This document shows, in pieces, positions 30,439-53,392 of a DNA stretch of 64,000 nt (its first letter is position 1; each line of letters opens with the position of its first letter). Source of the DNA: an uncultured Bryobacter sp. (lineage in GTDB: Bacteria > Acidobacteriota > Terriglobia > Bryobacterales > Bryobacteraceae). Below the pieces are notes generated by a model. The model ran no database searches. It saw only the letters and a program-made list of their open reading frames with translations, and was not told the origin of the DNA. Both the position numbers and the translations under genes were made by a program. The stretch lies in assembly GCA_964387685.1 (NCBI GenBank), contig CAYLXK010000024.1, positions 7,149 to 71,148 of the forward strand, in the 5' to 3' direction.

Positions 30439-31668
30439 ATGCAAAGAGAGCATATCTCCCGGGTTATCTTCGAGTACGCCGGCAAGATCGGCGGGGCCCG
30501 CGAGACTGGGGCCACCCTACGCCTGAACGCCGACATGGCGCGCGATTTAGTGGGGGCGGACCGTTGCAGCATTTGGCTGGTGGATTCAAGAGCGGCCCAG
30601 TTATGGACCATGGTGGCGCACGGCGTATCGGAATTGCGCATTCCGCTGGGGCAGGGCATTGTGGGCGCGGCGGTGGAGGCCAACGAGACGATTCTGGTGA
30701 ACGACGCTGCGGCGGACCCTCGTTTTTTACAGTCGGCGTCGAGCGGATACGAGACGAAGTCGTTGCTGGTGATTCCGCTGCATGCAAGCGACGGGGCCGT
30801 CATTGGGGCGCTGCAGGCTTTGAATAAGCCGGGCGGCTTCACGGAAGAAGACGTGAACCTGCTGGCGCTCGCGGCCACCTATTCAGCTTCGGCGATTGAA
30901 ACGCAAAGACTGCGTATGGAAGCGGAAGCCGCGCGCCTGATGCTGCGCGAGATGGAAATCGCCCGCGATGTGCAGCAGCGGCTTTTCCCCGCTGAGCATC
31001 CCAAGCTGGCGGCTCTGGAAGCGACGGCCTACTGCCGGCCGGCGAAATCGGTGGGCGGCGACTACTACGATTTCGTCGCAATGTCGGACGGGGGATTGTT
31101 CTTCACCTTGGGCGACGTGGCGGGGAAGGGCATCGCGGCGGCGGTGCTGATGGCGAGCATTCAGGCGTCGATCCGTTCGCAGGTGATGAGTCCGCCGGAA
31201 TCGTTGGCCCGGTTGGTGGGCACGTTCAACAAGGCGGTGGAATCCTTTTCGCGTTCGGAGCGCTACTCCACTTTATTCTGCGGTAAGTTTGACGCGACGT
31301 TGCGTAAGTTGACCTATGTGAATGCCGGGCAAGTGGAGCCGATGTTACTGCGCGCGGCGACCGGAGAGGTGGAGCGTCTTTCGACGGGCGGCCCGCCGGT
31401 GGGCTTGCTGTCCTTCGCCACTTATGAGCAGGCGGAAGTGACGCTGGCTGAAGGGGATATCGTACTGGGTTACTCCGACGGCATCAGCGAAGCGACGAAT
31501 GTGGCGGGCGAAATGTGGGACGACATCGAGGTACGGCGGATCCTGAAGGGCTCTGGACAACTGAGCGCGGCCGAGCTGCAGGCGCGCGTGATTGCGGCGG
31601 CGGACGCCTTTGCGGGCGAGGCCGAACAAGCCGACGACTTGACGGTGATGGTGCTGAAGGCGGTCTAG
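30439..31668 (+). CDS. GAF-domain PP2C/SpoIIE-family protein phosphatase
   Basis: GAF region (CSIWLVDSRAAQLWT...LVIPL). PP2C region (ARDVQQRLFP, GGDYYDF, LGDVAGKG, DDLTVMVL). Confidence 0.85.
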   Translation: MQREHISRVIFEYAGKIGGARETGATLRLNADMARDLVGADRCSIWLVDSRAAQLWTMVAHGVSELRIPLGQGIVGAAVEANETILVNDAAADPRFLQSASSGYETKSLLVIPLHASDGAVIGALQALNKPGGFTEEDVNLLALAATYSASAIETQRLRMEAEAARLMLREMEIARDVQQRLFPAEHPKLAALEATAYCRPAKSVGGDYYDFVAMSDGGLFFTLGDVAGKGIAAAVLMASIQASIRSQVMSPPESLARLVGTFNKAVESFSRSERYSTLFCGKFDATLRKLTYVNAGQVEPMLLRAATGEVERLSTGGPPVGLLSFATYEQAEVTLAEGDIVLGYSDGISEATNVAGEMWDDIEVRRILKGSGQLSAAELQARVIAAADAFAGEAEQADDLTVMVLKAV

Positions 31669-35176: not shown

Positions 35177-35836
35177 TCAGGCGATGCGGAGGGAAATCAG
35201 GTAATCGCAAAACTCGACGACGCCGGAGCCGCGCTTGGCCGAGGTCGGCCAAATGGAAACGTCGGGGCGGATGGCGCGGATGTTGAGTTCGGCGAGGGCT
35301 TGGTCGAATTCGCAGGCGGCGGCCAAGTCCATTTTGGTGAGAACGACCACGTCGGCACTATGGAAGAGCTTCGGATACTTCAAGGGTTTGTCTTCGCCTT
35401 CGGTGGCGCTGAGCAAAACGATACGCGCGGTTTCTCCCAGATCCCAGGCGGCGGGGCAGACCAGATTGCCGATGTTTTCAATAAAGAGGAAATCAAGTTC
35501 GGAGAGGGACCAGCCTTCGAGGTGGCGCTCGACCATATCGGCTTCCAGATGGCAAAGGGTGTGCGTTTCAATCTGGCGGGCGGGGGCGCCGCTTTCGGCA
35601 AGACGGCGGGCATCGAGATCGGTTTCCAGGTCTCCAACCAGGGCGGCGGGGCGGAAGCCTTGGGTGCGGAGGTGAATAAGGACCTGCTTGAGGAGCGCTG
35701 TCTTACCGGTGCCGGGACTGGAGACCCAATTGAAGACCGTTAGGTGGGCGGCGCGGAAGCGTTGGCGGAGTTCGTGGGCCAGAGTATCGTTCTTGTGCAG
35801 AACGTTCTTGCGGATTTCCACGATGCGGGTGGTCAT
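35177..35836 (-). CDS. hypB: Hydrogenase nickel-incorporation GTPase HypB
   Basis: SSPGTGKTALL P-loop, ENIGNLVCPA and LTKMDL. No His-rich or CxxCGC N-terminal tail. Confidence 0.9.
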   Translation of the reverse strand: MTTRIVEIRKNVLHKNDTLAHELRQRFRAAHLTVFNWVSSPGTGKTALLKQVLIHLRTQGFRPAALVGDLETDLDARRLAESGAPARQIETHTLCHLEADMVERHLEGWSLSELDFLFIENIGNLVCPAAWDLGETARIVLLSATEGEDKPLKYPKLFHSADVVVLTKMDLAAACEFDQALAELNIRAIRPDVSIWPTSAKRGSGVVEFCDYLISLRIA

Positions 35837-35857
35837 AAATGAGGAGGAGCGGAGAGC

Positions 35858-36232
35858 TCAGGGGGCGGCGCCGCGGTCGTCTTCCACCTCCATTGACTCT
35901 AACCTAATGTGCTCGCCGCTGCGCAGATCGGCGGTGGGCAGCCCGCAGAGCGGGCAACGGAAGGACTGCAAGCTCGCCAAGGGAGACGTGGCGTTACAGG
36001 CGCGGCAAAAGACGGTGACGGCTTCGGGTTCGATCAGCAAAGCGGCGCCTTCGAGCGGGGTGCCGGCCGCGGCGAGGGGAAAGCTGAAGCGCAGTGCGTC
36101 CCTTGAGACGCCGCAGAGATCTCCGGCGAGGACGGTGAGGGAGAGGACGCGCGGGGTGGCGTGGCCCTCGGCTGTGTTCAGAGCCTGTAGGGCTGAATCC
36201 ACCAGGGCGTAGCTGACCGAGAGTTCATGCAT
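35858..36232 (-). CDS. hypA: Hydrogenase nickel-insertion protein HypA
   Basis: MHE N-terminal Ni motif. Zn site CRAC...CPLC. About 124 aa from ATG 36232. The upstream ORF extension was discarded. Confidence 0.85.
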   Translation of the reverse strand: MHELSVSYALVDSALQALNTAEGHATPRVLSLTVLAGDLCGVSRDALRFSFPLAAAGTPLEGAALLIEPEAVTVFCRACNATSPLASLQSFRCPLCGLPTADLRSGEHIRLESMEVEDDRGAAP

Positions 36233-36242
36233 CGAGCGCTTG

Positions 36243-36258
36243 TGGACTAGCTTATGCT
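36243..36258 (+). promoter_or_regulatory. Candidate sigma-54 (-24/-12) promoter for hypF
   Basis: TGGACTAGCTTATGCT, with GG and GC separated by 10 nt, about 26 nt upstream of ATG 36284 and with AAGG in between. Confidence 0.3.
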
Positions 36259-36283
36259 GCCGGGGCTGAGCTAAGGTTTGGGG

Positions 36284-38554
36284 ATGAGCTCCGAAGGCGA
36301 GAGGCGGCACCGCTGGCGAATGCGCGTCAGGGGGGTGGTGCAGGGAGTGGGATTCCGGCCTTTCGTGGCGCGGCTTGCGGGGGAACTCGGGCTGGATGGC
36401 TGGGTGCGCAATCGGACCGGGGCGGTGGACCTAGAGGTGGAGGGAAGTCTTGCGGCACTGCGGCGCTTTCAGGAACGGATGGAGGAGGAAGCACCGCCGG
36501 CGGCCACGATTGAGCATGTGGAGAGGGAGGACTGCAGCGTCACAGGAGCGCCGGGCTTTCAGATTGGCTCGAGCCTGGAAGGCGAGAGCCAGAGTGGCGG
36601 CCTGCCGGCGGACTTGTCGATGTGCGAGGAGTGCCGGCGAGAGCTGGGCGATCCAGGGGATCGCCGTTACGGTTATGCGTTTTTGAACTGCACGGCGTGT
36701 GGGCCGCGTTATTCGATTGTGCGGGCCTTGCCCTATGACCGTGTGCGCACTTCGATGGACGTGTTTCCGCTTTGCCCGCGGTGCCGGGAGGAGTATGAAG
36801 ACCCCCGGGATCGGCGCTACCATGCGGAGCCGATCGCTTGCCCGCAATGTGGTCCGCAACTGGAGTATGCCGGAACAGTGGAAAAGTCAGCAGGGACGGC
36901 GGTTGAACTGGCGGCGGAGGCGCTGCGGGCGGGCCAAACGGGAGCGATCCAAGGAATTGGCGGCTTTCATCTCGCGGTGAATGCGCGCGACGGAGCGGCG
37001 GTGGGACGGTTGCGGGAGCGCAAAGGGCGGGGCGAACAGCCTTTGGCTTTGATGGTGCGTGATCTGGCGACGGCGAGGGAGTTTGTGGAGCTGGATGAGC
37101 AGGCGGTGGGACTGCTAAAGGCGTCGAGTGCGCCGATTGTCCTGTTGCCCAAGAGGGGGCTGACGCAGGTGGGGGAGGCTCTGGCGCCGGGGAACGGGTA
37201 CCTGGGCGTGTTGCTTCCGTATAGCCCGATGCACTGGCTGCTGCTGCATCAGGAGGAAGACCTGGATGCCTTGGTGATGACGTCTGGCAATCGGCATGGG
37301 GAGCCGATGGCCACGAGTAGGCAGGAGGCGAGGGAGAAGCTGGGGGCGTTGGCGGATTTTTTTCTCACGCATAACCGGGAGATTGTGGCGGCGGCGGACG
37401 ACTCTGTGGTGCGGCTGTATCGAGGGAGGGCGCTGGCGATCCGGCGGGGGCGGGGATATACCCCGCTGATGTTGCAGATTCCGGTGGAAGGGGGAACGGT
37501 GGTAGCGGCGGGGGCGGAACTGAAGGCGGCGGTGGGAGTGGCGAAAGGAGAGCGGGTGTGGCTGGGGCCGCACTTAGGGGATGTGGAGAATTTGGCGACC
37601 TTGGAGGCATTGGAGAAGAATGTGAATCACCTGAGCGGCTTGTTTCGGGTGGAGGCCGAAGCGGTGGTGCACGATGCGCATCCGGGCTACCTGTCGACGG
37701 AATGGGCCCAGCGCTATGCGGCCAAGAGGGGAATTGTGGCTTGGGGGGTGCAGCATCACCGGGCGCATGTTGCTTCCGTGCTGGCGGAGTATGGCGTGGG
37801 GCCGGAGGAGCGAGTGGTGGCGGCGGTCTTTGATGGGACGGGCTATGGGGACGACGGCGCGATCTGGGGTGGGGAGTTCTTTTGTGGACCGGTGGCGGCG
37901 CTGAAACGGCGAAGGCATTTGCCCTATGTGCTGCTGCCCGGGGGCGATGGGAGTGCCAGAAGGCCCGCGCTGGCCGCGGTGGCGCACTTGGCGGCGTGCG
38001 GAATCGACTGGGAGGATACGGCGGCCGGGCGAGGGCTGGGGGCGGTGGAGAAGAGTTTGCTTGCGCGGCAGATGGAGCGGGGATTCCATTGTCATGCCAC
38101 GTCGAGTATGGGAAGACTGTTCGATGCGGCGGCGAGCCTGCTGGGGGTGCGGCAGCGGATTCGGTACGAGGCGCAAGCGGCCATCGAGATGGAGGCCCGC
38201 GCGGCGGCCTGGGGCAGGGAGGAGAGCTACGGGGCGGGGTTGTGGCGACTGGACGAACTGTGGCGGGAGTTGTTGGACGATGGAGCGGAAATAGAAGCGC
38301 GGGCGCGGCGCTTTGGGGGATGCGTGACGCGCTGGACGATGGAGACTGTGACGAATTTGTGTGCCGGGGAGGGATCGGAGACGGTGGTGCTGGCGGGCGG
38401 GGTATTTCAGAACGTGTTGCTGCTGCAGGAGCTAACGCGAAAGCTGGAAATGGCGGGATTGCGGGTATTAGTGCCGCGCTGGTTGCCGCCCAACGATGGA
38501 GGTCTGGCGCTAGGTCAGTTGTACCTGGCGGCAACCCAGTGCGGGCCACGCTAA
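36284..38554 (+). CDS. hypF: [NiFe] hydrogenase maturation carbamoyltransferase HypF
   Basis: Acylphosphatase RVRGVVQGVGFRPFV. Two zinc-finger pairs CxxC-x18-CxxC (CEEC...CTAC; CPRC...CPQC). YrdC-like and Kae1-like regions. ATG 36320 is an alternative start. Confidence 0.9.
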   Translation: MSSEGERRHRWRMRVRGVVQGVGFRPFVARLAGELGLDGWVRNRTGAVDLEVEGSLAALRRFQERMEEEAPPAATIEHVEREDCSVTGAPGFQIGSSLEGESQSGGLPADLSMCEECRRELGDPGDRRYGYAFLNCTACGPRYSIVRALPYDRVRTSMDVFPLCPRCREEYEDPRDRRYHAEPIACPQCGPQLEYAGTVEKSAGTAVELAAEALRAGQTGAIQGIGGFHLAVNARDGAAVGRLRERKGRGEQPLALMVRDLATAREFVELDEQAVGLLKASSAPIVLLPKRGLTQVGEALAPGNGYLGVLLPYSPMHWLLLHQEEDLDALVMTSGNRHGEPMATSRQEAREKLGALADFFLTHNREIVAAADDSVVRLYRGRALAIRRGRGYTPLMLQIPVEGGTVVAAGAELKAAVGVAKGERVWLGPHLGDVENLATLEALEKNVNHLSGLFRVEAEAVVHDAHPGYLSTEWAQRYAAKRGIVAWGVQHHRAHVASVLAEYGVGPEERVVAAVFDGTGYGDDGAIWGGEFFCGPVAALKRRRHLPYVLLPGGDGSARRPALAAVAHLAACGIDWEDTAAGRGLGAVEKSLLARQMERGFHCHATSSMGRLFDAAASLLGVRQRIRYEAQAAIEMEARAAAWGREESYGAGLWRLDELWRELLDDGAEIEARARRFGGCVTRWTMETVTNLCAGEGSETVVLAGGVFQNVLLLQELTRKLEMAGLRVLVPRWLPPNDGGLALGQLYLAATQCGPR

Positions 38555-38563
38555 ACTTTCGAG

Positions 38564-39946
38564 GTGTCCTTGCCCCCGCAACTTTCGCTTGCCATTGTGG
38601 ACGATAACCTGGACAGCCTGGAGCTCATGCAGGAGGCACTGCACGAGGAAGGAATCGAGGTTCACTACTTCAGCGTGCCTGAAGAGGGGCTGGAGTTCAT
38701 TCTGCAAAAGCGGCCGCAGATCGTTATGACGGACTTGGTGATGCCGCGCCTGGACGGTATGGCCATGCTGGATCGCATCATGGCGGTGGATCCGACGATC
38801 GATGTGATCCTGATGACCGCCTACTATTCGACGGAGTCCGCGGTGGAGGCGATCCGGAAGGGTGCGACAGACTATCTGGACAAGCCGATTTCCGTAGAGA
38901 CGTTGCGCAAGAGGGTGGGCAATTTAGCGCGGATGCATCGGGCGAGATTGCGGGCGCTGGATCCGCAACAGAACTACCCAAATGGCCACGAGTTTGAAGG
39001 GATGATCGGCAATAGTCCGGAAATGTGGAAACTCTACGCGCAAATCCAGCGGGTGGCGCCGCATTTTCGGACGTTGCTGGTTCAGGGAGCGACCGGGACC
39101 GGTAAGGAACTGGTGGCAAGAGCGCTACATCGTTTAAGCGGAGTGCGGGGAGAGCTGGTGGCGCTGAATTGCTCGGCGGTGGTGGAGACGTTGTTTGAGA
39201 GCGAGCTATTCGGGCACGTGAAGGGGGCCTTCACGGGAGCGACGGGAAACAAAACGGGCCTGTTTGAGCACGCGCACGAGGGTACCCTGTTTCTCGACGA
39301 GATTGGGGATATGCCGCTGGCGACGCAAGCCAAGCTGTTGCGCGCGGTGCAGCATCAGGAGGTGCAGGCCTTGGGGGCGCTAACGGCGCGGAAGGTGGAG
39401 GTGCGGGTGATTGCGGCCACGCACCGGGATCTGCGGGCGATGATTCTGGAAGGACGATTCCGCGAAGATTTGTTTTACCGTTTGGCGATGGTGGAGTTGC
39501 ATGTGCCGAGCCTGCTGCAGCGCAACGGGGATGTGGAATTGCTGGCGCGTAGCCTGACGCGGAAGTGGGCTAAACAATATGGGCGGGAACTACAGGGTTT
39601 GACGCCCCGAGCCATGACGGTGTTGAAGCGCCATTTGTGGCCGGGCAACGTGCGGGAACTGGAGAACGTAATTGGGCACGCGGCGATGATGACGCGGGGG
39701 CCGCAAATTGATGTGGCGGATTTTCCGGGATATTTGATTCGGGGCGAGCCAGGAATGGGCGAAGGGAAGCGGCGCGCGGGGGCCGGGGAGGACGCGGGCG
39801 GCCTGGCGGGTCTGGCGGAGCGGGAAAAGGAATTGCTGGTTGAGGCCTTGAATAAGAGCGGAGCCAACCAGAGCCGCGCGGCCCGGATTCTACAGATTAG
39901 CCGGGATAAGCTGCGCTACCGGATGAAGAAGTACGACCTGGACTAG
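38564..39946 (+). CDS. Sigma-54-dependent NtrC-family response regulator (HupR/HoxA-like position)
   Basis: Receiver ([13 protein letters not shown]). AAA+ ([27 protein letters not shown]). Fis-type HTH ([21 protein letters not shown]). GTG start 9 nt after the hypF stop. Confidence 0.85.
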
Positions 39947-39983
39947 GGGGCCAGGCTAGGGGGGCGAGGCTAGGGGGGCGAGG

Positions 39984-41900
39984 TTAACGGCCGAGGTGCA
40001 GGCCGACGGTAATTTGCTGCACGCCAAAGGCCTCGTATGCGAATAGGCTTTGGCCGTAAGAGATGTTACGCCATTCGGCCAGGAAGCCCAATTGGGAATG
40101 GAGGGGGATGCGCAGACGGCCCAAGGGTTGGTAGTAGCGGCTGGGGCGGCTGCCGGAGGAGCGAAAGACACTGCCGCCGAGCGTGAGGAGGCTGTGGCGG
40201 GGGAGGCGCAGGTCTGCGGCGAGAGTGCCGGTGTGTGCGTTGTCGCGGTAGAGGCTGCGCTCGGGATCGTAGCCGACGGGGTCAAGATAGGTGAGGTCGG
40301 AAAAGATGGTGGAGCGGGTGTAGTCCGCCATGACGGAGAAGGCTTTGCGGGTCCACTGGAGAGTGAGGTTGGATTGCTGGGAACGGAAATCGAGACCGAC
40401 GCCCAGGGTGGGATTGGAGTTGTTGAGGCGCACGAAGCGGGAATTGAGCTGCCAGGAATCGGAAATCTGGTAGCGGGCGCGCAGGCGGAGTTGTTCAAAG
40501 TTTTGGAGGCTAGTGCGGAAGTAGGTTTGATCGCCGCGGCCGACTTCGGTTTCGGCATTGAAGGTGAGCTTAGTAGTGGGCCGGAAGACGAAGCCACCCA
40601 GGGCGGAATGGCGGCGAAGCGCGGCGCCTTCGAGGACGGGGCCGGGAGCGAGCGAGGCGCGGCGCACCTCGGAGTCTCCCCAGAGAAAGCGGTGGCCGCC
40701 AAAGAGGGTAAAGCGCTTGCTGAAGTCGTAGAAGACCTGGAGGCGCTGTTCGTTTTGCCGCCAGATGAGGCGGTCGTTGGAATTGACCGGAGGCAGCGAG
40801 CGCGCGTCTACGGTGCTCTGGAGGAAAAGCGAACCCGCGTTGTGGGTGCGTTCGATTTGCCAGGAATCGAGGACGCGCAGGCGCGCCAGGGGCCGGACTT
40901 CGAGGGTGAGGCCGCCGGCGGTCCTGGGCTGGCTGGCATAGCCGGTGGCGAGGGATTGTTGGCCGTTAACGAAACGCAAAGTGTCCAGGCGAAGGATCGT
41001 GCCTTGCGCGGACTCATTGAACGTGACTTCGGAGCGAGGGCGGGAATAGTAGAATTCGGCGCTGATGTCGAGCCAAGCGAGGGGAGAGAGGGTGAGGTCC
41101 GCGGAGGAGTAGATGTGCCCACCGTTCACGTCATAAAGCTGCGTGGCGCGGTCTATGAGGAGAGGGCGGCCGAAGTAAGTGGATTCTCGATTGCCGGTGT
41201 TGCGCAGGGTGTTAACGAGAGAGCTTTCATCGCGGAAGCGGGCGCCGCCTTGTTCGAGGGAGAGGTGGAGCTTTTCCAGTTCCAGGCGCAGGCCACCGCG
41301 TACGACGGTGTAGCCGTAATCGATGCGGCTGGCGGCGGGGTAGCTGTTTTCGTCGAGGACGAAGGGGCTGACGCCGGAGCCGAGGCCCGTATTCTGAGCG
41401 ACGCCGAAGAAGGGGGTCCAGCGGCGGCCGGGAAGGAAGTCGAAGTCGGCGTTCCAGAAGCGCTGGCGGGTATCGGTGGCGCGCTGGTTGGTGGTGTAGG
41501 CCTCGGGGCCGAGCTTGGCGAGTTGGGGACTGGCGAAGGAAGGCAAGGCGTTGAAATAGGCGAGGTTGCGGTAACTGAAGGTGGCCCGGTAGAGGGCGGA
41601 CTTTTCCGCATTTAACAGAAAGGTGTTAAGAGGGTCGCCCCAGTTGGCGCCATGGAGGCGCAGCTCATCGAGAAAGGCGAAGGAAGGGGGCTTGTAGGTG
41701 GTCTGGAACTGGAGCAGGCGAGGACCTTCGCCGAGATTGACGATGCTGCGATAAGTGTTAAAGCTGCCGTGCTGGCCGGCAAGGGCGCGGTAGCCGATGT
41801 CGCTGGAGGCTTGGAAGGGGGATTCCGCAGGCGTGGGGGCCGCGGCTGGCTCCTGGGGGTGCATCAGGACGGCAAGGAGGAGGGACGCGAGGAGTCTCAT
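39984..41900 (-). CDS. MtrB/PioB-like outer-membrane beta-barrel (porin partner of decaheme cytochrome)
   Basis: 638 aa. Short signal peptide. Alternating hydrophobic/polar beta-strand pattern throughout with Y/F/W/R-rich girdles. ATGA overlap with the MtrA-like gene. The call rests mainly on size, composition and synteny. Confidence 0.6.
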   Translation of the reverse strand: MRLLASLLLAVLMHPQEPAAAPTPAESPFQASSDIGYRALAGQHGSFNTYRSIVNLGEGPRLLQFQTTYKPPSFAFLDELRLHGANWGDPLNTFLLNAEKSALYRATFSYRNLAYFNALPSFASPQLAKLGPEAYTTNQRATDTRQRFWNADFDFLPGRRWTPFFGVAQNTGLGSGVSPFVLDENSYPAASRIDYGYTVVRGGLRLELEKLHLSLEQGGARFRDESSLVNTLRNTGNRESTYFGRPLLIDRATQLYDVNGGHIYSSADLTLSPLAWLDISAEFYYSRPRSEVTFNESAQGTILRLDTLRFVNGQQSLATGYASQPRTAGGLTLEVRPLARLRVLDSWQIERTHNAGSLFLQSTVDARSLPPVNSNDRLIWRQNEQRLQVFYDFSKRFTLFGGHRFLWGDSEVRRASLAPGPVLEGAALRRHSALGGFVFRPTTKLTFNAETEVGRGDQTYFRTSLQNFEQLRLRARYQISDSWQLNSRFVRLNNSNPTLGVGLDFRSQQSNLTLQWTRKAFSVMADYTRSTIFSDLTYLDPVGYDPERSLYRDNAHTGTLAADLRLPRHSLLTLGGSVFRSSGSRPSRYYQPLGRLRIPLHSQLGFLAEWRNISYGQSLFAYEAFGVQQITVGLHLGR

Positions 41901-42883
41901 CGCAAGAAGTCCCGGCTAATGTGAGAGCCATGCACCTTGGAGTGGCACACCGTGCAGTTTTGGTAGACGGGCAAGCGCAGGTCGTGAAAGCCGGTGGGAA
42001 CGGTTCCAAGCGTGCCGGAGCGGTTAGAGAGGGCAGGGGTGTTGGCGTGGCATTCGAGACAGAGGTTGCTGACTTGGGCGCGATTCAGAAGGCGGGGATT
42101 GGCCGAGCCATGATTCTCGTGGCAAGCGGAGCAGCCTTCGAGGCGAATAGGGGCGTGCTCAAAGACGAAGGGACCGCGCTTGTCGGCGTGGCACTTGAAG
42201 CAACCGGGTTCGGCGTTCGTGGTGCGGGCGGTAGTGTTAAGGCCGAAGGGCCGTGAAGTGCCGTGGGGATTGTGGCAATCGATGCAGGACATGGCGCCCG
42301 CGGGGACGGCGTGGCCATGGGGGCGCTGGAAGGAAGCCCAGGCGCTGGCGTGGCAGGTGGAACAGAGTTCATTGACGCGCGTGGCCCGGGAGGTAGGAAG
42401 AGCCAAGCGGCTCAGTGACGCGGGGGATTGAGGCGTGAAATCCCGAAAGAGGGGAACGGAGGAATCGTTTAAGGCATGGTGAACCGAGTGACAAGAGACG
42501 CAGGAGACTTGTACCTTGGCGTGGGAACCGCTGATGCGGCCGGCGTGGGTGGCCTGATTCTTGTGGCAGGACAAGCAGGAAGAGTCCGCCTCGCGGGGCG
42601 TGGCTTTGCTGTGATTGAGAATGAACTTGGCTTCGGCGGCTTCGCCGTGCTTTAAGCCCGGCCCGTGGCAGGATTCGCAGGACTGGCCTTTCCAGCCGCG
42701 GACGGTGTCCGTTTCCACTTTGCCGTGGCGAGATTTCAAGAAGGCCTTGCCGAGGTCCTCATGGCAAACCAGGCAGGCTTCGGTGCCGGCGTAGCCCTCT
42801 TTGTCCGTGCGCGCTTTTTTGGGCGCAGCGAAGGTGGCGGCAGCCAGCACAAAGAAAATCGCCGAGGCGACCAGGGGCCGCAT
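41897..42883 (-). CDS. MtrA/DmsE-family periplasmic decaheme c-type cytochrome
   Basis: 328 aa, signal peptide, ten CxxCH sites. Blocks collinear with Shewanella MtrA as I recall it: CESCHGPGLKH, CIDCHNPHG, CFKCHADKRGPFVFEHAP...CSACHENHGS...CLECHA, and C-terminal CTVCHSKVHGS. Confidence 0.85.
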   Translation of the reverse strand: MRPLVASAIFFVLAAATFAAPKKARTDKEGYAGTEACLVCHEDLGKAFLKSRHGKVETDTVRGWKGQSCESCHGPGLKHGEAAEAKFILNHSKATPREADSSCLSCHKNQATHAGRISGSHAKVQVSCVSCHSVHHALNDSSVPLFRDFTPQSPASLSRLALPTSRATRVNELCSTCHASAWASFQRPHGHAVPAGAMSCIDCHNPHGTSRPFGLNTTARTTNAEPGCFKCHADKRGPFVFEHAPIRLEGCSACHENHGSANPRLLNRAQVSNLCLECHANTPALSNRSGTLGTVPTGFHDLRLPVYQNCTVCHSKVHGSHISRDFLR

Positions 42884-42884
42884 G

Positions 42885-46318: not shown

Positions 46319-46357
46319 TTTGCGTGTCTGAAGTTTGCGTGGTCCGAGGGAATTGGA

Positions 46358-46675
46358 CTATTGCTTGAGAGTGCGGACGTAGGCCAAGATGTTGGCGACA
46401 TCCTTTTCGACGGCGGGCATGGCCTTCATCTTGCCGACGCCTTCGAGGGTTTCTTTCTTCAGGGCAGCGTCGGACTTAGCCTGGACCTCTTTCGAGCCGA
46501 GGTGCTTCATTTCGACCTTGAGCATTTTGCCGATGGCGGCGTTGGGGGCGCCGTCGGCGCCATGGCACTTCTTGCAGGCGGCGTCATAAGCGGTCTTACC
46601 GGACGCCAAGTCGGCGGCGGAGGCCAAAGCGGACACCCAGACGAGAGAAAGCAGCAAGGGCAGAGTTCGTTTCAT
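46358..46675 (-). CDS. Periplasmic monoheme class I cytochrome c
   Basis: 105 aa from ATG 46675. Signal MKRTLPLLLSLVWVSALASA. Single CKKCH. Distal Met candidate in GKMKAMP. Confidence 0.8.
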   Translation of the reverse strand: MKRTLPLLLSLVWVSALASAADLASGKTAYDAACKKCHGADGAPNAAIGKMLKVEMKHLGSKEVQAKSDAALKKETLEGVGKMKAMPAVEKDVANILAYVRTLKQ

Positions 46676-46687
46676 CGCGGCTCTACA

Positions 46688-46703
46688 AGCAAGTGAGTGG
46701 CCA
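46688..46703 (-). promoter_or_regulatory. Sigma-54-like -24/-12 element upstream of the cytochrome operon (weak; implies a near-leaderless mRNA)
   Basis: The minus strand reads TGGCCACTCACTTGCT with correct GG-N10-GC spacing. The GC lies only 13 nt before the ATG. Confidence 0.2.
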
Positions 46704-46766
46704 TTCAAAAGTAGCTGGAAAGTTGAAGCTTGACGATAGTTGGGTGGGGGAAAATACACAAAGATT

Positions 46767-46780
46767 GGGGAAAATTCCCC
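46767..46780. promoter_or_regulatory. Inverted repeat GGGGAA-aa-TTCCCC in the divergent control region (candidate activator site)
   Basis: 6-bp arms with a 2-nt spacer, preceded by a partial direct copy TGGGGGAAAAT. Located about 60-75 bp upstream of the hyaA sigma-54-like promoter. Confidence 0.25.
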
Positions 46781-46840
46781 AAGCGGGAAATCGTTTAGTG
46801 GAGAACAGGGGCAATCTCGCAGAGAGAAGGAGGTTTTTAT

Positions 46841-46856
46841 TGGCCCCCTGATTGCA
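46841..46856 (+). promoter_or_regulatory. Candidate sigma-54 (-24/-12) promoter for the hydrogenase operon
   Basis: TGGCCCCCTGATTGCA against the consensus TGGCAC-N5-TTGCA. About 28 nt upstream of ATG 46885, with AAAGGAAG as RBS. Confidence 0.45.
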
Positions 46857-46884
46857 CAGTAGGGACTGGCTGAAAGGAAGTGGA

Positions 46885-48000
46885 ATGATGCTGGCCACCG
46901 CACCCGCTTCAACGTCTCAAGTTCTTCAACGGCGAGGAATTAGCCGCCGCGACATACTCACTTTTTGCACTATGACGGCCGCGTCCCTCGGCCTGCCCCC
47001 GGAGGCGGCGGCGCAAATCGCCGAGGCGCTGGAAACAAAGCCGCGCATCCCGGTGCTTTGGATTCATGGGTTGGAATGCACGTGTTGCAGCGAATCGTTT
47101 CTGAGGTCGACGCACCCGGTTGCGCAGGACATTCTGTTCAACATGATTTCGCTGGATTATGACGACACGCTCCAGGCCGCGGCGGGCCATCAGGCCGAAG
47201 AGATCCGCAAGCGAATCATGAAGGAGTACAAAGGCCAATACCTGCTGGCGGTGGAAGGCAACGCGCCTACCAACGACGGGGGCGTCTATTGCACGGTGGG
47301 CGGCGAAACGTTTACGAGCATTCTGGAAGAGGCCGCGGCGGGCGCCAAGGCCATCCTGGCCTGGGGCAGCTGCGCGTCCAACGGATGTGTGCAGGCGGCT
47401 TACCCAAACCCGACCGGCGCGAAGCCCGTGTACAAGATGATCACCGACAAGCCGGTCATCAACGTGCCCGGATGCCCGCCGATTGCGGAAGTGATGACCG
47501 GGGTATTGAGCTATCTCCTGACCTTCGACCGGATTCCGGAACTGGATGCGTTCCGGCGGCCGAAGATGTTTTACGGGCAGCGGATTCATGACCGCTGCTA
47601 CCGAAGGAGCTACTTTGACGCGGGGCAATTTGTTGAGAAGTGGGACGACGAGGGGGCGCGGAAGGGTTGGTGCCTTTACAAGATGGGGTGCCGCGGTCCG
47701 TCAACCTACAATGCCTGCGCTTCGATGAAGTGGAACGAGTGTGTTTCGTTCCCGATCGGTTCTGGGCATGGCTGTTTCGGATGCTCGGAAGACAATTTTT
47801 GGGATAACGGACCGTTCTATGAGCGCTTGGCGAATATTCCGGTGCCGACCACGGACCTGACGGCGGACCGGGTAGGTCTGGGCTTGAGCGCCGTGGTAGC
47901 CGGGGCGATTGCCGCGCATGGAGTGGCGGCGCTAGCCAAACACAATCTGACGCAGATCAAAGCAGCCCCCGCAAGCAGTACGACGAAGCCGGAAGCCTAG
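46885..48000 (+). CDS. hyaA: [NiFe] hydrogenase small subunit, group 1 (Hyd-1/MBH-like), Tat signal, C-terminal TM anchor
   Basis: [12 protein letters not shown] Tat motif. [33 protein letters not shown]-terminal helix [20 protein letters not shown]. Near-collinear with E. coli HyaA as I recall it. Confidence 0.9.
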
Positions 48001-48009
48001 GAGCCAGCT

Positions 48010-49737
48010 ATGTCTACCCGAGTCGTAGTAGACCCGATTACCCGCATTGAAGGACATCTGCGGGTGGAAGCGATCCTGAACGATCGGAATGTGATTGGCG
48101 ACGCCTTGTCCAGCGGGACGATGTGGCGCGGGATCGAATTGATTGTGCAGGGGCGGGACCCAAGAGAGGTATGGGCCTTCGCCGAACGGATTTGCGGGGT
48201 GTGTACGACGATCCACGCGCTGGCCAGCGTGCGCAGCGTGGAGAACGCGCTCGGAATCGAGATCCCGAAAAACGCAAGCATTATCCGCCAACTGATGAAC
48301 TTTACGCAGATCGTGCAGGATCACGTGATTCACTTTTATCACCTGCATGCGTTGGACTGGGTGGATGTGGTGTCGGCGCTGAAAGCGGATCCGGCGGCGA
48401 CCTCGGCGCTGGCGCAGAAGGTGTCGCCGCACTGGCCCAAGTCCTCGCCGGGCTACTTTGCCGATACGGCGGCGACGTTGAAGAAGTTTGTCGATTCCGG
48501 TCAACTCGGTATCTTTCAGAATGCCTACTGGGGCCATCCCGCCTACAAGCTGCCGCCAGAGGCGAATCTGATGGCGGTGGCGCACTATCTCGAAGCGCTG
48601 CAGTGGCAAAAGGAAGTGGCCAAGATCCACACGGTATTTGGAGGCAAGAATCCGCATCCCAACTATCTGGTGGGGGGCGTGGCGTGCGCGATCAGTCTCG
48701 AGGGCGACAACGCGCCGATCAATATGGAGCGGCTGAATTTTGTCAAGGATCTGATCACGGAAGCGATCCGGATCGTCGAGCAGCTTTATATTCCGGACCT
48801 AGTGGCGATCGCGAGCTTTTATCCGGAATGGACGAAGATCGGCGGGGGGCTGGGTAGCTTCATGTCCTACGGCGACATGCCGACGGACTACGATTTGGGC
48901 AATCCGTCGAAGTTCCGTTTTCCGCGCGGGGTGATTCTGAACAAGAAACTGGGCGAAGTGCTGCCGCTGGACCTGGCGGACTTTGGCCAGGTGCAGGAGG
49001 AGGTGACGCACTCCTGGTACGAGTACGGGAACGGGAAGCAGACCTTGCACCCATGGGAAGGCGAGACGAAGGCAAAGTATTCGGGGCCGAAACCGCCTTA
49101 TAAGCAATTGGATGAAACGCAAGGATACTCCTGGGTGAAGACCCCTCGCTGGCGAGGGCACGCGGTGGAAGTAGGGCCGCTGGCGCGGATGGTGATCGGC
49201 TATGCCTCGGGCAATGGGCCGATTCGGGATGCCGTCAAGTGGGGATTGGAGACGACGAAATTGCCGATCGAGGCGTTGTTTTCGACACTCGGACGGACCT
49301 TTGCGCGGGGCCTCGAGACGAAGCTGGCCGTGCACTGGATGAGGGACGAGTTCAACAACTTGATGGCGAATCTGAAAGCGGGCGATTTGACGACTGCGGC
49401 GACAGCGAAATGGGATCCGTCCAGTTGGCCGAAGGAGGCCAAGGGAGTGGGCTTTGTGGAGGCGCCGCGCGGCTCGTTGGGACATTGGATCCGGATCCAG
49501 GATCAGAAGACGGCGTCCTACCAGATCGTGGTGCCGTCGACATGGAACGCCTCGCCTCGCGATGCCAAGGGCCAGCACGGCGCCTATGAGGCTGCGCTGA
49601 TTGGCACGCCAATGGTGGACGGGATGAAGCCCGTCGAGATACTGCGGACGATTCATTCGTTCGACCCCTGCCTGGCCTGCGCGACGCATGTAATGGGCGC
49701 GGGCGGTGAAACCCTGGCCAAGGTAATTGTGCGTTAG
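48010..49737 (+). CDS. hyaB: [NiFe] hydrogenase large subunit, group 1
   Basis: VVDPITRIEGH. L1 motif ERICGVCTTIH. L2 motif SFDPCLACATH followed by a 15-aa tail for endopeptidase cleavage. Confidence 0.95.
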   Translation: MSTRVVVDPITRIEGHLRVEAILNDRNVIGDALSSGTMWRGIELIVQGRDPREVWAFAERICGVCTTIHALASVRSVENALGIEIPKNASIIRQLMNFTQIVQDHVIHFYHLHALDWVDVVSALKADPAATSALAQKVSPHWPKSSPGYFADTAATLKKFVDSGQLGIFQNAYWGHPAYKLPPEANLMAVAHYLEALQWQKEVAKIHTVFGGKNPHPNYLVGGVACAISLEGDNAPINMERLNFVKDLITEAIRIVEQLYIPDLVAIASFYPEWTKIGGGLGSFMSYGDMPTDYDLGNPSKFRFPRGVILNKKLGEVLPLDLADFGQVQEEVTHSWYEYGNGKQTLHPWEGETKAKYSGPKPPYKQLDETQGYSWVKTPRWRGHAVEVGPLARMVIGYASGNGPIRDAVKWGLETTKLPIEALFSTLGRTFARGLETKLAVHWMRDEFNNLMANLKAGDLTTAATAKWDPSSWPKEAKGVGFVEAPRGSLGHWIRIQDQKTASYQIVVPSTWNASPRDAKGQHGAYEAALIGTPMVDGMKPVEILRTIHSFDPCLACATHVMGAGGETLAKVIVR

Positions 49738-49746
49738 GAGCGGCTT

Positions 49747-50487
49747 ATGTCCTCACAAATTCAGGACCCGCAGACTCAAGCCATGGCCGCGCCGGGCGAG
49801 GCGGAAAGGCCGGAATCCCGCTACGTGTGGGAGAGCCCGGTGCGGATCTTTCATTGGATGATTGCGCTGGCGATTCCCGTGCTGCTGGCCACGGGCTTTT
49901 ATATAGCCTGGCCTTTTGCCTCCGTGCAGGGGGAGGCGACGGGAAACTTCTTGATGGGGAGGATGCGGCAGATTCATTTTGGGGCGGGCTACGTGTTGCT
50001 GGCCGCGTTTGCCATTCGGATTTACTGGTTTTTTGCGGGCAATCATTATGCGCGGTCGGGTTTTCCCTTCGTCTGGAAGAAGGCCTGGTGGACGCATCTG
50101 GGCGAGCAGGCGCGCGAGTACCTCACAATTCGCCTCACGAAGCGCTTTGTGGGCCACAACCAGTTGGGCGCCTTGAGCTACCTGCTCTTTGTGGGACTCA
50201 TGGGCGGCGCAGAAATCGCCACCGGCTTTGCGATGTATAGCGAATCGAATCCGGGAGGATTCTGGAGCCGGGTCTTCGGCTGGGTGATTCCGTTCTGTGG
50301 CGGTTCCTATCAAACCCACCAATGGCATCATTTCTTTGCCTGGGGCATTCTGCTGTTTATTGCGATTCACATTTATATCGTGGTGCTGGACAGCATTTAC
50401 CTCGATAACGGAATGGTGGGCAGTATCTTTACCGGACGCAAGTTTGTAAGGAGCACGGATGCCGACAGCAAGACCTGGATCAGTTAA
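49747..50487 (+). CDS. hyaC: Ni/Fe-hydrogenase b-type cytochrome subunit
   Basis: PVRIFHWMIALAIPVLLATGFYI. Four TM helices with conserved His (HFGAGY, HQWHHFF). Confidence 0.85.
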   Translation: MSSQIQDPQTQAMAAPGEAERPESRYVWESPVRIFHWMIALAIPVLLATGFYIAWPFASVQGEATGNFLMGRMRQIHFGAGYVLLAAFAIRIYWFFAGNHYARSGFPFVWKKAWWTHLGEQAREYLTIRLTKRFVGHNQLGALSYLLFVGLMGGAEIATGFAMYSESNPGGFWSRVFGWVIPFCGGSYQTHQWHHFFAWGILLFIAIHIYIVVLDSIYLDNGMVGSIFTGRKFVRSTDADSKTWIS

Positions 50488-50965
50488 GCCGGTGCTGGTG
50501 TTGGGCTTGGGCAATGTCTTATTGACCGACGACGGCTTTGGGCCCACGCTACTCGAGCGGTTGCGGAGGCGGAGCGCCGCCGGGGCGAAGGTGGAGTTTG
50601 TCGATGGGGGAACGATGGGTTTGGGGTTGCTAAGCTTGCTGGCCGAGCGGCGATGCCTGCTAATTTTGGATGCGTTTCGCGCGGGCCGGCCGGCGGGGAC
50701 GCTGATGGTGGAGCGGAACTTCGAGTGGCAGCAGGCGGGCAAGGTCTTGGGTCGAAGCGCGCACGACGGGAACGCGGCTGGTTTGCTGGCGGTGGCGACG
50801 CTGACGGGCGACTTGCCGCCGCGTCTGGCTTTGGTGGGGGTCGAACCGCAGACCTTGGATACCGGGGTGGGCTTAAGCGACACGGTGGAAGCGCAGCTGC
50901 CCGAGGCGGAGCGGGAAGCCTGGCGATTGATTGAGGAATTGGTGGAGTTGTCCGTATGTGTTTAG
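50459..50965 (+). CDS. hyaD: Hydrogenase maturation endopeptidase (HyaD/HybD/HupD family)
   Basis: [17 protein letters not shown] and LILDA motifs. Confidence 0.85.
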
Positions 50966-51225
50966 CGATACCGGGGCAGGTGATGCGGATCGAGGAGATT
51001 GGCTTCCACCGGGTAGCCCAGGTCTGCTTTGGCGGAGTGGAGCGGCCGGTGTTTGTGGATTTCGTGCCCGAGGCGGTAGCGGGCGACTATGTGCTGGTAC
51101 ACGTGGGCTTCGCGCTCAGCAAGATCGACGAAGAAGAGGCCAAGGCGAGCTTCGCATTAATGGAACGACTGGGATTCATGGAGCCGCTGGACGAGGCCGA
51201 AGAAGTGACGCAGGAGGACCCATGA
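50956..51225 (+). CDS. hypC: HypC/HybG/HupF-family hydrogenase chaperone
   Basis: [10 protein letters not shown]-terminus with the essential Cys2. 89 aa. Confidence 0.9.
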
Positions 51226-52325
51226 GATACGTCGATGAGTATCGGGACCCGGCGCTAGCTCAGGCGGTACTGCGTGAGATCCGCGCGCGCGTAACGCGGC
51301 CTTGGGTGTTGATGGAGATCTGCGGCGGGCAGACCCACAGCCTGATGCGCTATGGAATCGACGAGCTGCTGCCGCCGGAACTGGAACTGGTGCATGGGCC
51401 GGGCTGCCCGGTTTGCGTTACGCCGCTGGAAATGATCGATAAGGCGCTGGAGATCGCCGCGCGGCCCGAAGTGATTTTTCTCACCTATGGCGACATGATG
51501 CGCGTGCCGGGATCGGCGAGCGATTTATTGGAGGTGAAGGCGCGCGGAGGCGACGTTCGCTTTGTGTACTCGCCCATGCAGGCTGTGGAGGTGGCGCGAA
51601 AGAATCCGGGGCGGCAGGTGGTTTTCTTTGCGGTGGGATTTGAGACGACGGCGCCCGCTAACGCCATGGCCGTCTGGCGGGCGGCGAAGGAAGGGATCGG
51701 AAATTTTTCGTCGCTGGTCTCGCATGTGCTGGTGCCGCCGGCGTTAATGGTGCTGCTCGGTTCAGCCCAGAACCGGGTGCAAGGGTTGATCGCGCCGGGC
51801 CACGTATGTACGGTGGAAGGCTGCCGCGATTATGAGGCGCTGGTGGAGCGCTTCCGAGTGCCGGTGGTGGTGGGGGGCTTTGAACCATTGGATTTGTTGG
51901 AAGCGATTCTGCTGCTGGTAAGGCAGTTGGAGGAAGGGCGCTGGCTGCTGGAGAACCAGTACAAGCGAGCCGTGAGCGCGGAAGGCAATGCGGTGGCGCG
52001 CGGGCTGGTGGCGGAAGTCTACGAGGTGTGCGATCGGAAGTGGAGAGGGATCGGAGAGTTGGCGCGGAGCGGCATGCGGCTGCGGGAAAAGTATGCGGGA
52101 TTTGACGCCGAAAGGGTTTTCGGGCTGACGGGGGAAGGCGTGGCCGAAGATGTGGAGTGCCGGAGCGCGCAGGTGCTGATGGGCCAAATGAAACCGACGG
52201 ATTGCCCCGCCTTCGGAGTGCGCTGCACGCCGGAAAAGCCCCTGGGCGCGCCCATGGTCTCGAGCGAAGGGGCCTGCGCGGCCTACCATCGCTATAAGCC
52301 GCAACTGGTGCAGGTGGCGCGGTGA
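51222..52325 (+). CDS. hypD: Hydrogenase maturation factor HypD
   Basis: [27 protein letters not shown] and FETTAP. ATGA overlap with hypC. The long ORF from 50931 is an artefactual extension. Confidence 0.9.
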
Positions 52326-53392
52326 AGCGCGTGGACGCCGACGATGTGACGAATTGGACCTGCCCGCTGCCGCTGCGCCAGTACGGGCAGATCGTGATGG
52401 GGCATGGAGGAGGGGGCAAGCTTTCCGCGGATCTGGTAGAGCATCTGATTTTGCCGGCCTTGGGCGGGCAGAGCGCGGATTGTCTGGGGGACTCCACCGT
52501 CCTGCCGCCGCTGACCGGGCGCATGGCGATTTCGACGGACTCCTACGTCGTGCGGCCGATCCTGTTTCCGGGCGGCAGTATTGGCGAGTTGGCCGTGAAC
52601 GGGACGGTTAACGATTTAGCGATGTCCGGAGCGTGGCCCCTGTATATGACCGCCGGGCTGATTCTGGAGGAGGGCTTGGCGCTAACCACGCTGGCCGAGG
52701 TGCTGAACAGAATGGGGCAAGCCGCGCGGCAGGCGGGGGTGCGGATCGTCGCCGGCGATACCAAGGTGGTGGGCCGGGGGCAGGCGGACGGCATCTTTAT
52801 TCATACGGCGGGCGTGGGGGAAGTGCCGGAAGGTGTGGAGATCGGGCCTGGGAACGCGCGGCCTGGCGACGTGATTCTCTTGTCGGGAAGCGTGGGAGAT
52901 CATGGGATGGCGATCCTCTGCGCGCGGGAGGAACTGGAGTTTGACGGCGTCATCCAGAGCGACTGCGCCGCTTTGCACCGGTTGGTGCGGGCGATGCTGG
53001 AGGCGGCAGGACCGGGCGCCGTGCGGGTGTTGCGGGATCCAACTCGCGGAGGGCTCGCGGCAGCGCTGCATGAGATTGCGCGTAGTAGCCGGGTAGGGAT
53101 GGAGATTGAGGAAGGGACGGTGCCGGTAGACGACGCGGTCCGTTCCGCGTGCGAATTGATGGGGCTGGACCCTCTTCAGGTCGCCAGCGAGGGCAAGTTG
53201 GTGGCGATGGTAGACGCGGGGGCCGCCCGCCAAATCCTGGCCGCGATGCGGCTGGATCCCTTGGGAGAGAGAGCCGTCGAGATCGGCCGCGTGACGGACC
53301 GGCATCCTGGGATGCTGACGGCGCGAACGGCGATAGGAGGGCAACGCGTGATCCCCATGCCAATCGGGGAGCAGTTGCCGCGGATCTGCTAA
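52322..53392 (+). CDS. hypE: Hydrogenase maturation carbamoyl dehydratase HypE
   Basis: AIR-synthase-like fold ([21 protein letters not shown]) and the diagnostic C-terminal PRIC. GTG start overlaps the hypD stop. Confidence 0.9.

Follow-up and report, generated by a model that had tools for sequence, protein, structure and literature searches.

Hydrogen-driven metal reduction, group-1 [NiFe] hydrogenases, the menaquinol oxidase ImcH and MtrCAB conduits in Bryobacterales are all already known. In Shewanella oneidensis and Geobacter sulfurreducens, H2-dependent metal reduction uses a periplasmic uptake hydrogenase, menaquinone, a multihaem quinol oxidase and an outer-membrane conduit, with hydrogenase and conduit genes at separate loci. 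Here we describe a block with the same kinds of components at positions 35177-53392 of a 64-kb stretch of DNA (hereafter the window; contig CAYLXK010000024.1 of an uncultured Bryobacter sp.), in which a hydrogenase operon and an Mtr operon have a common control region, while relatives have a common operon and even one polypeptide. We hypothesize, with a probability of roughly one half, that the block is a co-regulated respiratory module that would carry electrons from H2 through menaquinone and an ImcH-like protein to Mtr and export them to an extracellular acceptor. The functional link between hydrogenase and conduit now appears better supported than from the preliminary description of this DNA, because of the common sigma-54 promoter/enhancer architecture, a fusion of the hydrogenase cytochrome b (HyaC) to an ImcH-like protein in related genomes (HyaC::ImcH-like) and an independent hydrogenase-mtrCAB operon in a distant relative (L057).

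Genes were taken from a six-frame listing of open reading frames and from profile searches. Every gene named in the preliminary description was recovered as an intact open reading frame at or near the coordinates it had been given, and the gene order stands: hypBA; hypF with a sigma-54 response regulator; a cytochrome operon of five genes, the last three being mtrCAB; a divergent region of exactly 209 bp (46676-46884); and hyaABCD-hypCDE. An identical barrel gene with the same neighbours is present on at least nine contigs from independent public sequencing runs, and the arrangement is therefore not an assembly artefact. The cytochrome operon is tightly packed, with 4-nt overlaps at imcH/mtrC and mtrA/mtrB, and the regulator coding sequence starts 16 nt past the hypF stop codon (13 nt between, the stop uncounted). 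Family scores exceed curated cut-offs for HyaA, HyaC, HypB/D/E/F, MtrA and MtrC; HyaB was placed instead by Pfam NiFeSe_Hases on an identical contig and by PDB homology. As had been claimed, two complete sets of components lie in the block, one for a periplasmic enzyme that leads from H2 to quinone (HyaAB with its cytochrome b) and one for a chain from quinol to the cell surface (ImcH-like protein, cytochrome c, MtrA, MtrB-like barrel and MtrC). The genes are:

35177-35836, minus strand: hypB, nickel-insertion GTPase (TIGR00073, 235.7 bits against a cutoff of 121)
35858-36232, minus strand: hypA, nickel metallochaperone (TIGR00100, 67.8 bits, under the cutoff of 88; PF01155 HypA on the identical-contig gene)
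36284-38554, plus strand: hypF, carbamoyltransferase (TIGR00143, 696.6 bits; full Pfam domain set)
38570-39946, plus strand: NtrC-type sigma-54-dependent response regulator, a bacterial enhancer-binding protein (REC, Sigma54_activat, AAA_lid and HTH_8)
39984-41900, minus strand: MtrB-like outer-membrane beta-barrel, 638 aa (fold and transitive Pfam matches)
41897-42883, minus strand: MtrA/DmsE-family periplasmic decahaem cytochrome (TIGR03508, 226.6 bits against a cutoff of 192.2)
42885-44924, minus strand: MtrC/OmcA-family decahaem cytochrome (TIGR03507, 477.8 bits against a cutoff of 209.3)
44921-46318, minus strand: predicted ImcH-like inner-membrane hexahaem menaquinol:cytochrome c oxidoreductase, 465 aa, NapC/NirT superfamily (PF03264, 40.2 bits against a cutoff of 24.1)
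46358-46675, minus strand: periplasmic class-I monohaem cytochrome c, gene 1 of the cytochrome operon (PF00034/PF13442)
46885-48000, plus strand: hyaA, Tat-exported [NiFe] hydrogenase small subunit (TIGR00391, 507.5 bits)
48010-49737, plus strand: hyaB, [NiFe] large subunit (NF007550, 736 bits; PDB homology)
49747-50487, plus strand: hyaC, dihaem b-type cytochrome membrane subunit (TIGR02125, 184.2 bits against a cutoff of 121.5)
50459-50965, plus strand: hyaD, large-subunit maturation endopeptidase (TIGR00072, 110.8 bits)
50956-51225, plus strand: hypC (PF01455 on the gene called on identical contig L001)
51222-52325, plus strand: hypD (TIGR00075, 477.6 bits)
52322-53392, plus strand: hypE (TIGR02124, 417.7 bits)

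A species-representative collection contained 344 stretches that encode a relative of the barrel, and 80 of these loci were fetched and surveyed by tblastn and on annotated contigs. Every named lineage among the 80 is Bryobacterales or other Acidobacteriota. The mtrCAB genes are present throughout, and the five-gene form (cytochrome c, ImcH-like, mtrCAB) is found in all loci with at least 55% barrel identity and in a few at about 41%. A divergent hyaABCD-hypCD operon accompanies it in the window, in L005, L006, L007, L009 and L011, and in the metagenome contig L088, and the hya-linked loci form one clade in a neighbour-joining tree of MtrCAB. Conserved synteny of the hya/mtr pair, for which the preliminary description had called, is thus real but restricted to five of the 80 species-level loci in a single clade, close sisters lacking it. 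The description of the Mtr operon as nested inside a hyp locus is accurate for this genome only: hypF, hypA and hypB lie beyond the mtr operon in the window alone, while PMT_2, DUF4159 and PEPCK genes occupy that place in relatives. The "nesting" therefore appears to be a peculiarity of this genome, and the divergent hya/mtr pairing a trait of the clade.

The region between the two operons, which do diverge across 209 bp as first described, contains four putative regulatory elements:

46688-46703, minus strand: putative sigma-54 -24/-12 promoter of the cytochrome operon, TGGCCACTCACTTGCT (13 nt from the ATG)
46745-46760, unstranded: putative upstream activator site 2, 16-bp imperfect palindrome, TGGGGGAAAATACACA
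46766-46781, unstranded: putative upstream activator site 1, perfect palindrome, TGGGGAAAATTCCCCA (21 bp from site 2)
46841-46856, plus strand: putative sigma-54 -24/-12 promoter of the hya operon, TGGCCCCCTGATTGCA (Shine-Dalgarno sequence downstream, then the hyaA ATG at 46885)

A -24/-12 element (YGG-N9-TGCW) precedes the cytochrome c gene in 22 of 23 loci, 18 of which have it between -28 and -32 relative to the ATG, against a background of 5% of random 120-nt windows in the same loci. The element also precedes hyaA at -42 to -44 in all seven hya-linked loci, where a Shine-Dalgarno sequence comes next. Because spacer bases differ among loci, this conservation points to constraint and not to mere identity. 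Between the promoters lie two 16-bp palindromes (TGGGG-N6-CCCCA) set 21 bp apart, and most related loci, hydrogenase-free ones included, carry such sites near positions -108 and -87 relative to the cytochrome c start codon; site 1 is the sole perfect match to this pattern in the 64-kb window. The divergent regions, 201-213 bp long, hold one palindrome pair only, and each promoter is directed outward from that pair. These sites are supported by their conserved position across loci and not by enrichment: window-wide, matches to the sigma-54 consensus (22 found, 29.8 expected) and to the palindrome with up to two mismatches (34 found, 49 expected) are not above chance. No sigma-70-like site was found in the 209-bp region.

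The regulator encoded next to mtrB has the features of a sigma-54 activator (PF00158, 212.8 bits; HTH_8; GAFTGA loop; receiver Asp present). Its orthologues (60-72% identity) lie convergent to mtrB in many relatives, with and without a hydrogenase, and because they adjoin mtrB in loci that lack the hydrogenase, the regulator belongs ancestrally to the mtr module. It is not a feature of the hydrogenase locus. An origin as a HoxA-type hydrogenase regulator was rejected, since in loci with no hydrogenase mtrB is still flanked by an orthologue, which in one case has a PAS histidine kinase of its own. On the simplest reading, the enhancer that ancestrally belonged to the cytochrome operon and was served by the neighbouring regulator has come to lie between two sigma-54 promoters that point outward, and could drive both; the regulator would bind there, and the two operons would be co-expressed.

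Two side observations concern this control system. In L087 (11860-14995), a locus that lacks a neighbouring hydrogenase, a divergently oriented multi-PAS histidine kinase and a single-domain response regulator accompany the sigma-54 regulator; no kinase adjoins the regulator in the window or in its hya-linked relatives. In addition, the -12 element of the cytochrome operon ends 13-17 nt before the ATG (46676-46703, and the same in 18 related loci), so that the predicted mRNA would be leaderless or nearly so and could not accommodate a Shine-Dalgarno sequence, seemingly an uncommon arrangement among sigma-54 promoters. For hyaA, by comparison, the leader would be some 18 nt long and include a Shine-Dalgarno sequence.

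A more direct tie between the two gene sets comes from protein fusions. In L057, a distant member of Bryobacterales (38% barrel identity), one strand encodes a hydrogenase small subunit, a 770-aa protein, the large subunit, a HycI protease, mtrC, mtrA and mtrB. The N-terminal part of the 770-aa protein (L057:1587-3899) is a HyaC homologue, 41% identical to HyaC of the window, and the C-terminal part is homologous to the entire 465-aa ImcH-like protein (32% identity over 451 aa, E 3e-73), with the three transmembrane helices and the haem motifs retained. The same architecture (about 769 aa) occurs in at least 238 protein clusters at 90% identity, from Bryobacteraceae, "Ca. Acidiferrum" and Terriglobales, so the fusion is not an error. 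Source annotation gives these proteins only as 'Ni/Fe-hydrogenase b-type cytochrome subunit', the b part being PF01292. All 12 fusion-bearing loci that were examined, by a metagenome scan and contig look-ups, sit in hydrogenase operons, with the fusion gene placed between or after the small- and large-subunit genes. The hydrogenase involved is of another subgroup, with a 4-Cys small subunit and a large subunit closest to the group-1e enzyme of A. vinosum; because this differs from the subgroup in the window, hydrogenases have been joined to Mtr parts at least twice. A -24/-12 pattern is inconsistent upstream of the fusion-type operons (2 of 6 loci, none in L057).

Fusions of a b-type to a multihaem c-type cytochrome have been described as CbcL, MtrH and MtoC, which HyaC::ImcH-like resembles to that extent. 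In contrast to CbcL, the domain order is reversed (b, then c) and the c part is ImcH-like rather than c7-like, and, unlike CbcL, MtrH and MtoC, the fusion is encoded within a hydrogenase operon as one of the integral subunits. The fusion-type loci recall group-1e operons of the Isp type (hynS-isp1-isp2-hynL), which also carry a membrane-protein gene between those for the small and large subunits, the large subunit being closest to that of A. vinosum. The window differs from the CbcL and Isp-type systems in that both halves are separate genes in two divergent operons. The fused proteins suggest that the two membrane proteins work as neighbours, through a local quinone loop or by direct b-to-c haem transfer. 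Two of the fusion-bearing loci provide further cases of hydrogenases beside Mtr-type genes. L094 has an MtrC-family gene after its fusion-type hydrogenase operon and, a few kb downstream (11349-13004), a gene for a 551-aa CbcL-like protein (c7-type multihaem domain, then Ni_hydr_CYTB), and hence holds both orientations of the b/c fusion. In "Ca. Acidiferrum", L089 (3563-7243; also L090) encodes an MtrA-like decahaem protein, an 876-aa protein and a monohaem cytochrome c just upstream of the fusion-type operon; the 876-aa protein has no Pfam match and could be an unrecognised porin of another porin-cytochrome conduit.

The conduit itself follows the plan of Shewanella MtrCAB (PDB 6R2Q), with contiguous and co-oriented mtrC-mtrA-mtrB genes (44924 down to 39984, minus strand; gaps or overlaps of at most 4 nt), two decahaem cytochromes and a barrel whose best fold match is MtrB. 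The proposed MtrA and MtrC families are borne out, both TIGR03508 and TIGR03507 cut-offs being exceeded. Each cytochrome has exactly 10 CXXCH motifs; the MtrA-like protein has a signal peptide, and the MtrC-like protein matches PF22113 (domains II/IV, 187.9 bits) and, among PDB sequences, MtrF (3pmq, E 6e-33), OmcA and MtrC. Unlike the Shewanella lipoprotein, MtrC of the window (42885-44924) has an N-terminal hydrophobic segment (residues 11-29; signal or anchor) and no lipobox Cys.

For the 638-aa barrel, the profile check proposed earlier failed directly: the protein gave no Pfam or NCBIfam match, PF11854 and TIGR03509 remaining silent even at E<=1, and a profile of 33 family members found no MtrB among PDB sequences. 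It was therefore assigned by fold and transitive Pfam homology. Fourteen of the 33 homologues match PF11854 MtrB_PioB (best E 6.8e-9), and an AlphaFold2 model (predicted local distance difference test score 81.6; 27 DSSP strand elements, compared with about 26 strands for the MtrB fold) has as its top Foldseek match in PDB the MtrB chain 6r2q_B of the Shewanella Mtr complex (E 2.7e-14, TM-score 0.69/0.68), the next-best matches being 22-strand TonB receptors at a TM-score of at most 0.50. The model argues for a very diverged MtrB relative that would work like MtrB, although it has diverged too far from the Shewanella protein for the MtrB/PioB profiles and contains no cysteines, hence no CXXC motif.

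Within Bryobacterales, the closest described conduits are the Acidobacteriia 'Group 5' MtrCAB (Baker et al. 2022, PMC8805035) and the Mtr-like cluster 'EET2' (Fiorito et al. 2026, bioRxiv 10.64898/2026.05.27.727921), which share the lineage and the mtrC-mtrA-mtrB order. Group 5 has a tetrahaem gene downstream of mtrB and no nearby inner-membrane quinol oxidase (Baker et al. 2022), whereas the sub-clade of the window has an upstream monohaem cytochrome c and ImcH-like gene and a sigma-54 regulator after mtrB, to which a divergent hydrogenase operon has been added in one clade. The word "hydrogenase" is absent from the text of Baker et al. 2022, and the H2 links in the main text of Fiorito et al. 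2026 concern hydrogenase groups 3c, 3d and 4e only.

The inner-membrane protein of the cytochrome operon had been called NapC/NirT-like. This holds at the level of the superfamily (PF03264, 40 bits against 24; E 4e-4 to NrfH, 2j7a_C), but an ImcH-type menaquinol oxidase appears the more precise identification, judged by signature and published residues. ImcH homologues are marked by a CX3CH first haem motif and 5-9 CX2CH motifs (Zhong and Shi 2018, PMC6295460), and the 465-aa protein has an atypical CX3CH first motif (C132-C136-H137), five CX2CH motifs and three N-terminal transmembrane helices (hydropathy segments at about 19-44, 44-74 and 97-120). The G. sulfurreducens protein (GSU3259, used with high-potential acceptors) shares the three helices, the CX3CH motif with His137 and the NapC/NirT/NrfH homology. 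Its conserved residues around haem 1 and the quinol site (E127, H137, K173, Q179 and Y188; 10.1101/2023.05.03.539133) are matched by E127, H137, K172, Q178 and Y187, a comparison with published residue numbers and not an alignment. The window protein differs in having six haem motifs instead of seven, in relatives fused to a hydrogenase cytochrome b, and in an operon common with mtrCAB, where the 2018 survey saw no mtrAB beside any imcH (PMC6295460). So far, ImcH has been implicated as a menaquinol oxidase in outward electron transfer alone (PMC6295460; 10.1101/2023.05.03.539133). The accompanying cytochrome c, with one CXXCH motif and a signal peptide, is kept as the first operon gene in 23 related loci. 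A likeness to MtoD of iron oxidisers was considered and dropped, its PDB sequence matches being generic class-I cytochromes with no MtoD among them.

On the hydrogenase side, HyaA is closest in the PDB to HoxK of the Ralstonia eutropha membrane-bound hydrogenase (MBH; 498 bits) and to E. coli Hyd-1 (476 bits). Its ECTCCSES and SCASNGC segments align with C17/C19/C20 and C115/C120 of HoxK, so that both supernumerary cysteines (Cys19 and Cys120) are present, and the 6-Cys motif of the proximal [4Fe-3S] cluster is kept in the small subunits of all hya-linked relatives. HyaA also has an SRRDIL twin-arginine motif and a C-terminal transmembrane anchor (residues 330-351), and HyaB has both the N- and C-terminal Cys motifs. 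We therefore read the enzyme as a probable O2-tolerant, membrane-bound hydrogenase of the 6-Cys type, which we call "1d-like" because HyaB ties between the group-1e structure of A. vinosum (3myr_B, 769.5 bits) and the group-1d structure of Salmonella Hyd-5 (4c3o_A, 767.8 bits). Like group-1d enzymes (HoxKGZ of the R. eutropha MBH, HyaABC of E. coli Hyd-1), it has a Tat-exported, C-terminally anchored small subunit with both extra cysteines, a dihaem cytochrome b subunit and a HyaD protease at the locus. It departs from them in a large subunit equally near the A. vinosum enzyme, in an operon without hyaE/hyaF or hoxL/O/Q/R/T/V-type genes, and in its divergence from an extracellular electron transfer operon across a common sigma-54 control region.

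From these components a route for electrons can be proposed. HyaAB, with activity judged from its components, would oxidise H2 on the periplasmic side of the membrane as a Tat-exported, anchored, O2-tolerant 6-Cys enzyme. Cytochromes b of the HyaC/FdnI type pass electrons across the membrane to menaquinone, and the two b haems of HyaC would do so here, an electrogenic step that would conserve energy. The ImcH-like hexahaem protein would then re-oxidise menaquinol on the periplasmic face, at an NrfH-type haem-1 site, and pass electrons to MtrA, directly or through the monohaem cytochrome c. MtrA, threaded through the MtrB-like barrel, would reduce MtrC at the surface, as expected from the family and the 6R2Q complex, and MtrC would reduce Fe(III) or Mn(IV) minerals, humic matter or an electrode. 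Topology fits this route: in the fused form, the four helices of HyaC and three more put the haem c domain in the periplasm, and the stand-alone protein retains those three. Both operons would be transcribed from sigma-54 promoters facing off a common enhancer pair bound by the adjacent NtrC-type regulator, turning on hydrogenase and conduit together.

A broader version of this idea, which we put forward tentatively, is that a cytochrome b subunit physically coupled to an ImcH-type quinol oxidase defines an unrecognised uptake hydrogenase system in Bryobacterales and related Acidobacteriota. Its halves, fused in many genomes and split but co-regulated in the window, would form a hard-wired quinone loop or a haem b-to-c wire from H2 to periplasmic cytochromes, and to the surface where mtrCAB is attached. 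H2 would then be a dedicated fuel for mineral or humic respiration in soils, peat and lakes. The fusion demonstrates coupling of hydrogenase to ImcH-like proteins generally and not to Mtr specifically, because an Mtr gene is missing from the surrounding 10 kb at most loci of the fusion type; Mtr would be one of several possible downstream partners.

This absence of Mtr from most fusion loci is one of several points that weigh against the respiratory module proposed above. Most Mtr-bearing Bryobacterales, among them the close sisters L012-L014 and the nested L027, also lack the adjacency, and Mtr can therefore function without it. Gene order in this clade is conserved in general, which makes a conserved adjacency by itself weak evidence. 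Aerobic lithotrophs, too, typically possess 6-Cys O2-tolerant hydrogenases and class-I cytochromes c, and electrons are known to pass through Mtr-type conduits in either direction. The enhancer sites are tied to the regulator by position alone, and the carriers are uncultured organisms known here from sequence. Alternatively, H2 might feed the periplasmic cytochrome c pool generally, through the hydrogenase, HyaC, the ImcH-like protein and the monohaem cytochrome c, with oxidases or other reductases as main sinks and Mtr as an optional sink or merely co-regulated by a redox or energy-limitation signal. We hold this to be the less likely course of events: fusion-type operons do usually lack Mtr nearby and often have a monohaem cytochrome c (L091, L089/90), stand-alone ImcH-like proteins are widespread and mostly without Mtr neighbours, and an O2-tolerant 6-Cys small subunit fits O2 respiration, but cytochrome c and the ImcH-like protein are the first two genes of a packed mtrCAB operon in more than 20 species, and L057 has mtrCAB within the hydrogenase operon itself.

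The direction of flow could also be the opposite, with Mtr bringing electrons inward from Fe(II), reduced humics or a cathode and handing them to an oxidase by way of the monohaem cytochrome c and to quinone by way of the ImcH-like protein, while the O2-tolerant hydrogenase serves as a second, co-regulated donor for (micro)aerobic growth. Besides the O2 tolerance, such parallel lithotrophic inputs are suggested by the resemblance of the set of monohaem class-I cytochrome c, NapC/NirT-family protein and MtrAB to mtoA-mtoB-mtoD-cymA of Sideroxydans (PMC6295460), by HyaAB in Fe(II)-oxidising Gallionellaceae (PMC10734462) and by the origin of several relatives in iron-rich lakes, judging by locus titles. 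We nevertheless find it rather improbable. A surface MtrC is present here and usually missing from iron oxidisers, the cytochrome c has no detectable similarity to MtoD among solved structures, and ImcH homologues are so far found in Fe(III) reducers only, as quinol oxidases (PMC6295460). Moreover, HyaC, a quinone reductase, fused to a second quinone reducer would make little sense; we favour the outward direction mainly because a polypeptide that unites a quinone reductase with a quinol oxidase is sensible only for successive steps or direct exchange. Finally, hya might have been inserted beside mtr once in an ancestor and passively inherited, its promoter being served by another activator and the two systems working independently. 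The restriction of the adjacency to one clade, its loss in L027, the synteny of other flanking genes and the sigma-54 dependence of uptake-hydrogenase promoters in several proteobacteria whatever their neighbours would all agree with such a neutral history. It appears the least probable of these explanations, given a single enhancer-like palindrome pair in regions of 201-213 bp with both promoters pointing away from it, and given the HyaC::ImcH-like fusions and the single operon of L057, which tie the gene sets together independently.

Literature searches returned nothing relevant on a hydrogenase-Mtr linkage or a HyaC-NapC fusion in Acidobacteria. Four features did not turn up in the literature searched: an operon of ImcH with mtrCAB, the pairing of that operon with a divergent O2-tolerant hydrogenase across a common enhancer, the HyaC::ImcH-like fusion, which is widespread, and the one operon of L057 that unites hydrogenase and mtrCAB. 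The pathway would be a hybrid of Geobacter-type ImcH and Shewanella-type MtrCAB, a combination not found by the 2018 survey (PMC6295460). Bryobacterales are abundant in soils, peat and freshwater, where H2 is a ubiquitous fermentation product, and transcription of their Mtr-like clusters in peat has recently been demonstrated. The fusion in related genomes suggests that such bacteria can respire minerals or humic matter with hydrogen. If the respiratory module holds true, H2 would directly supply electrons for the reduction of Fe(III), Mn(IV) and humic matter beyond the Proteobacteria and Desulfuromonadia, through a link comprising a common enhancer, the common operons of relatives and a fused HyaC::ImcH protein. 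A defined regulator, a promoter pair and a protein fusion would then be open to testing, and hundreds of proteins annotated as 'Ni/Fe-hydrogenase b-type cytochrome subunit' would be flagged as a distinct device for coupling hydrogenase to cytochromes.

The surroundings of the block have features of their own. The plus strand has a strong G excess from 26000 to 58000, strongest at 36000-46000, with a GC skew of up to 0.30 and a third-codon-position skew of up to 0.6 that is equal for genes on either strand; the skew is negative at 8-26 kb and near zero at 58-64 kb. A foreign island is not supported as its source, relatives showing equally strong skew of either sign over 20 kb. It looks like an unusually strong, lineage-wide replication-strand bias, and an inversion or rearrangement may have its edges where the skew changes within the window. 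Outside the block, the window holds housekeeping genes only; no sensor kinase, regulatory hydrogenase (HoxBC/HupUV) or further respiratory genes were found elsewhere in its 64 kb. Near the island, with no evident link to it, lie a gene for a 1019-aa protein with Reg_prop propeller repeats and an adenylate/guanylate cyclase domain (26358-29417, plus strand) and, after it, a GAF-SpoIIE phosphatase gene (30388-31668). Beside hypB, an 840-aa protein (32567-35089, minus strand) carries the TIGR03437 'Solibacter uncharacterized C-terminal domain' N-terminally (residues 25-264), together with a lamin-tail domain (LTD).

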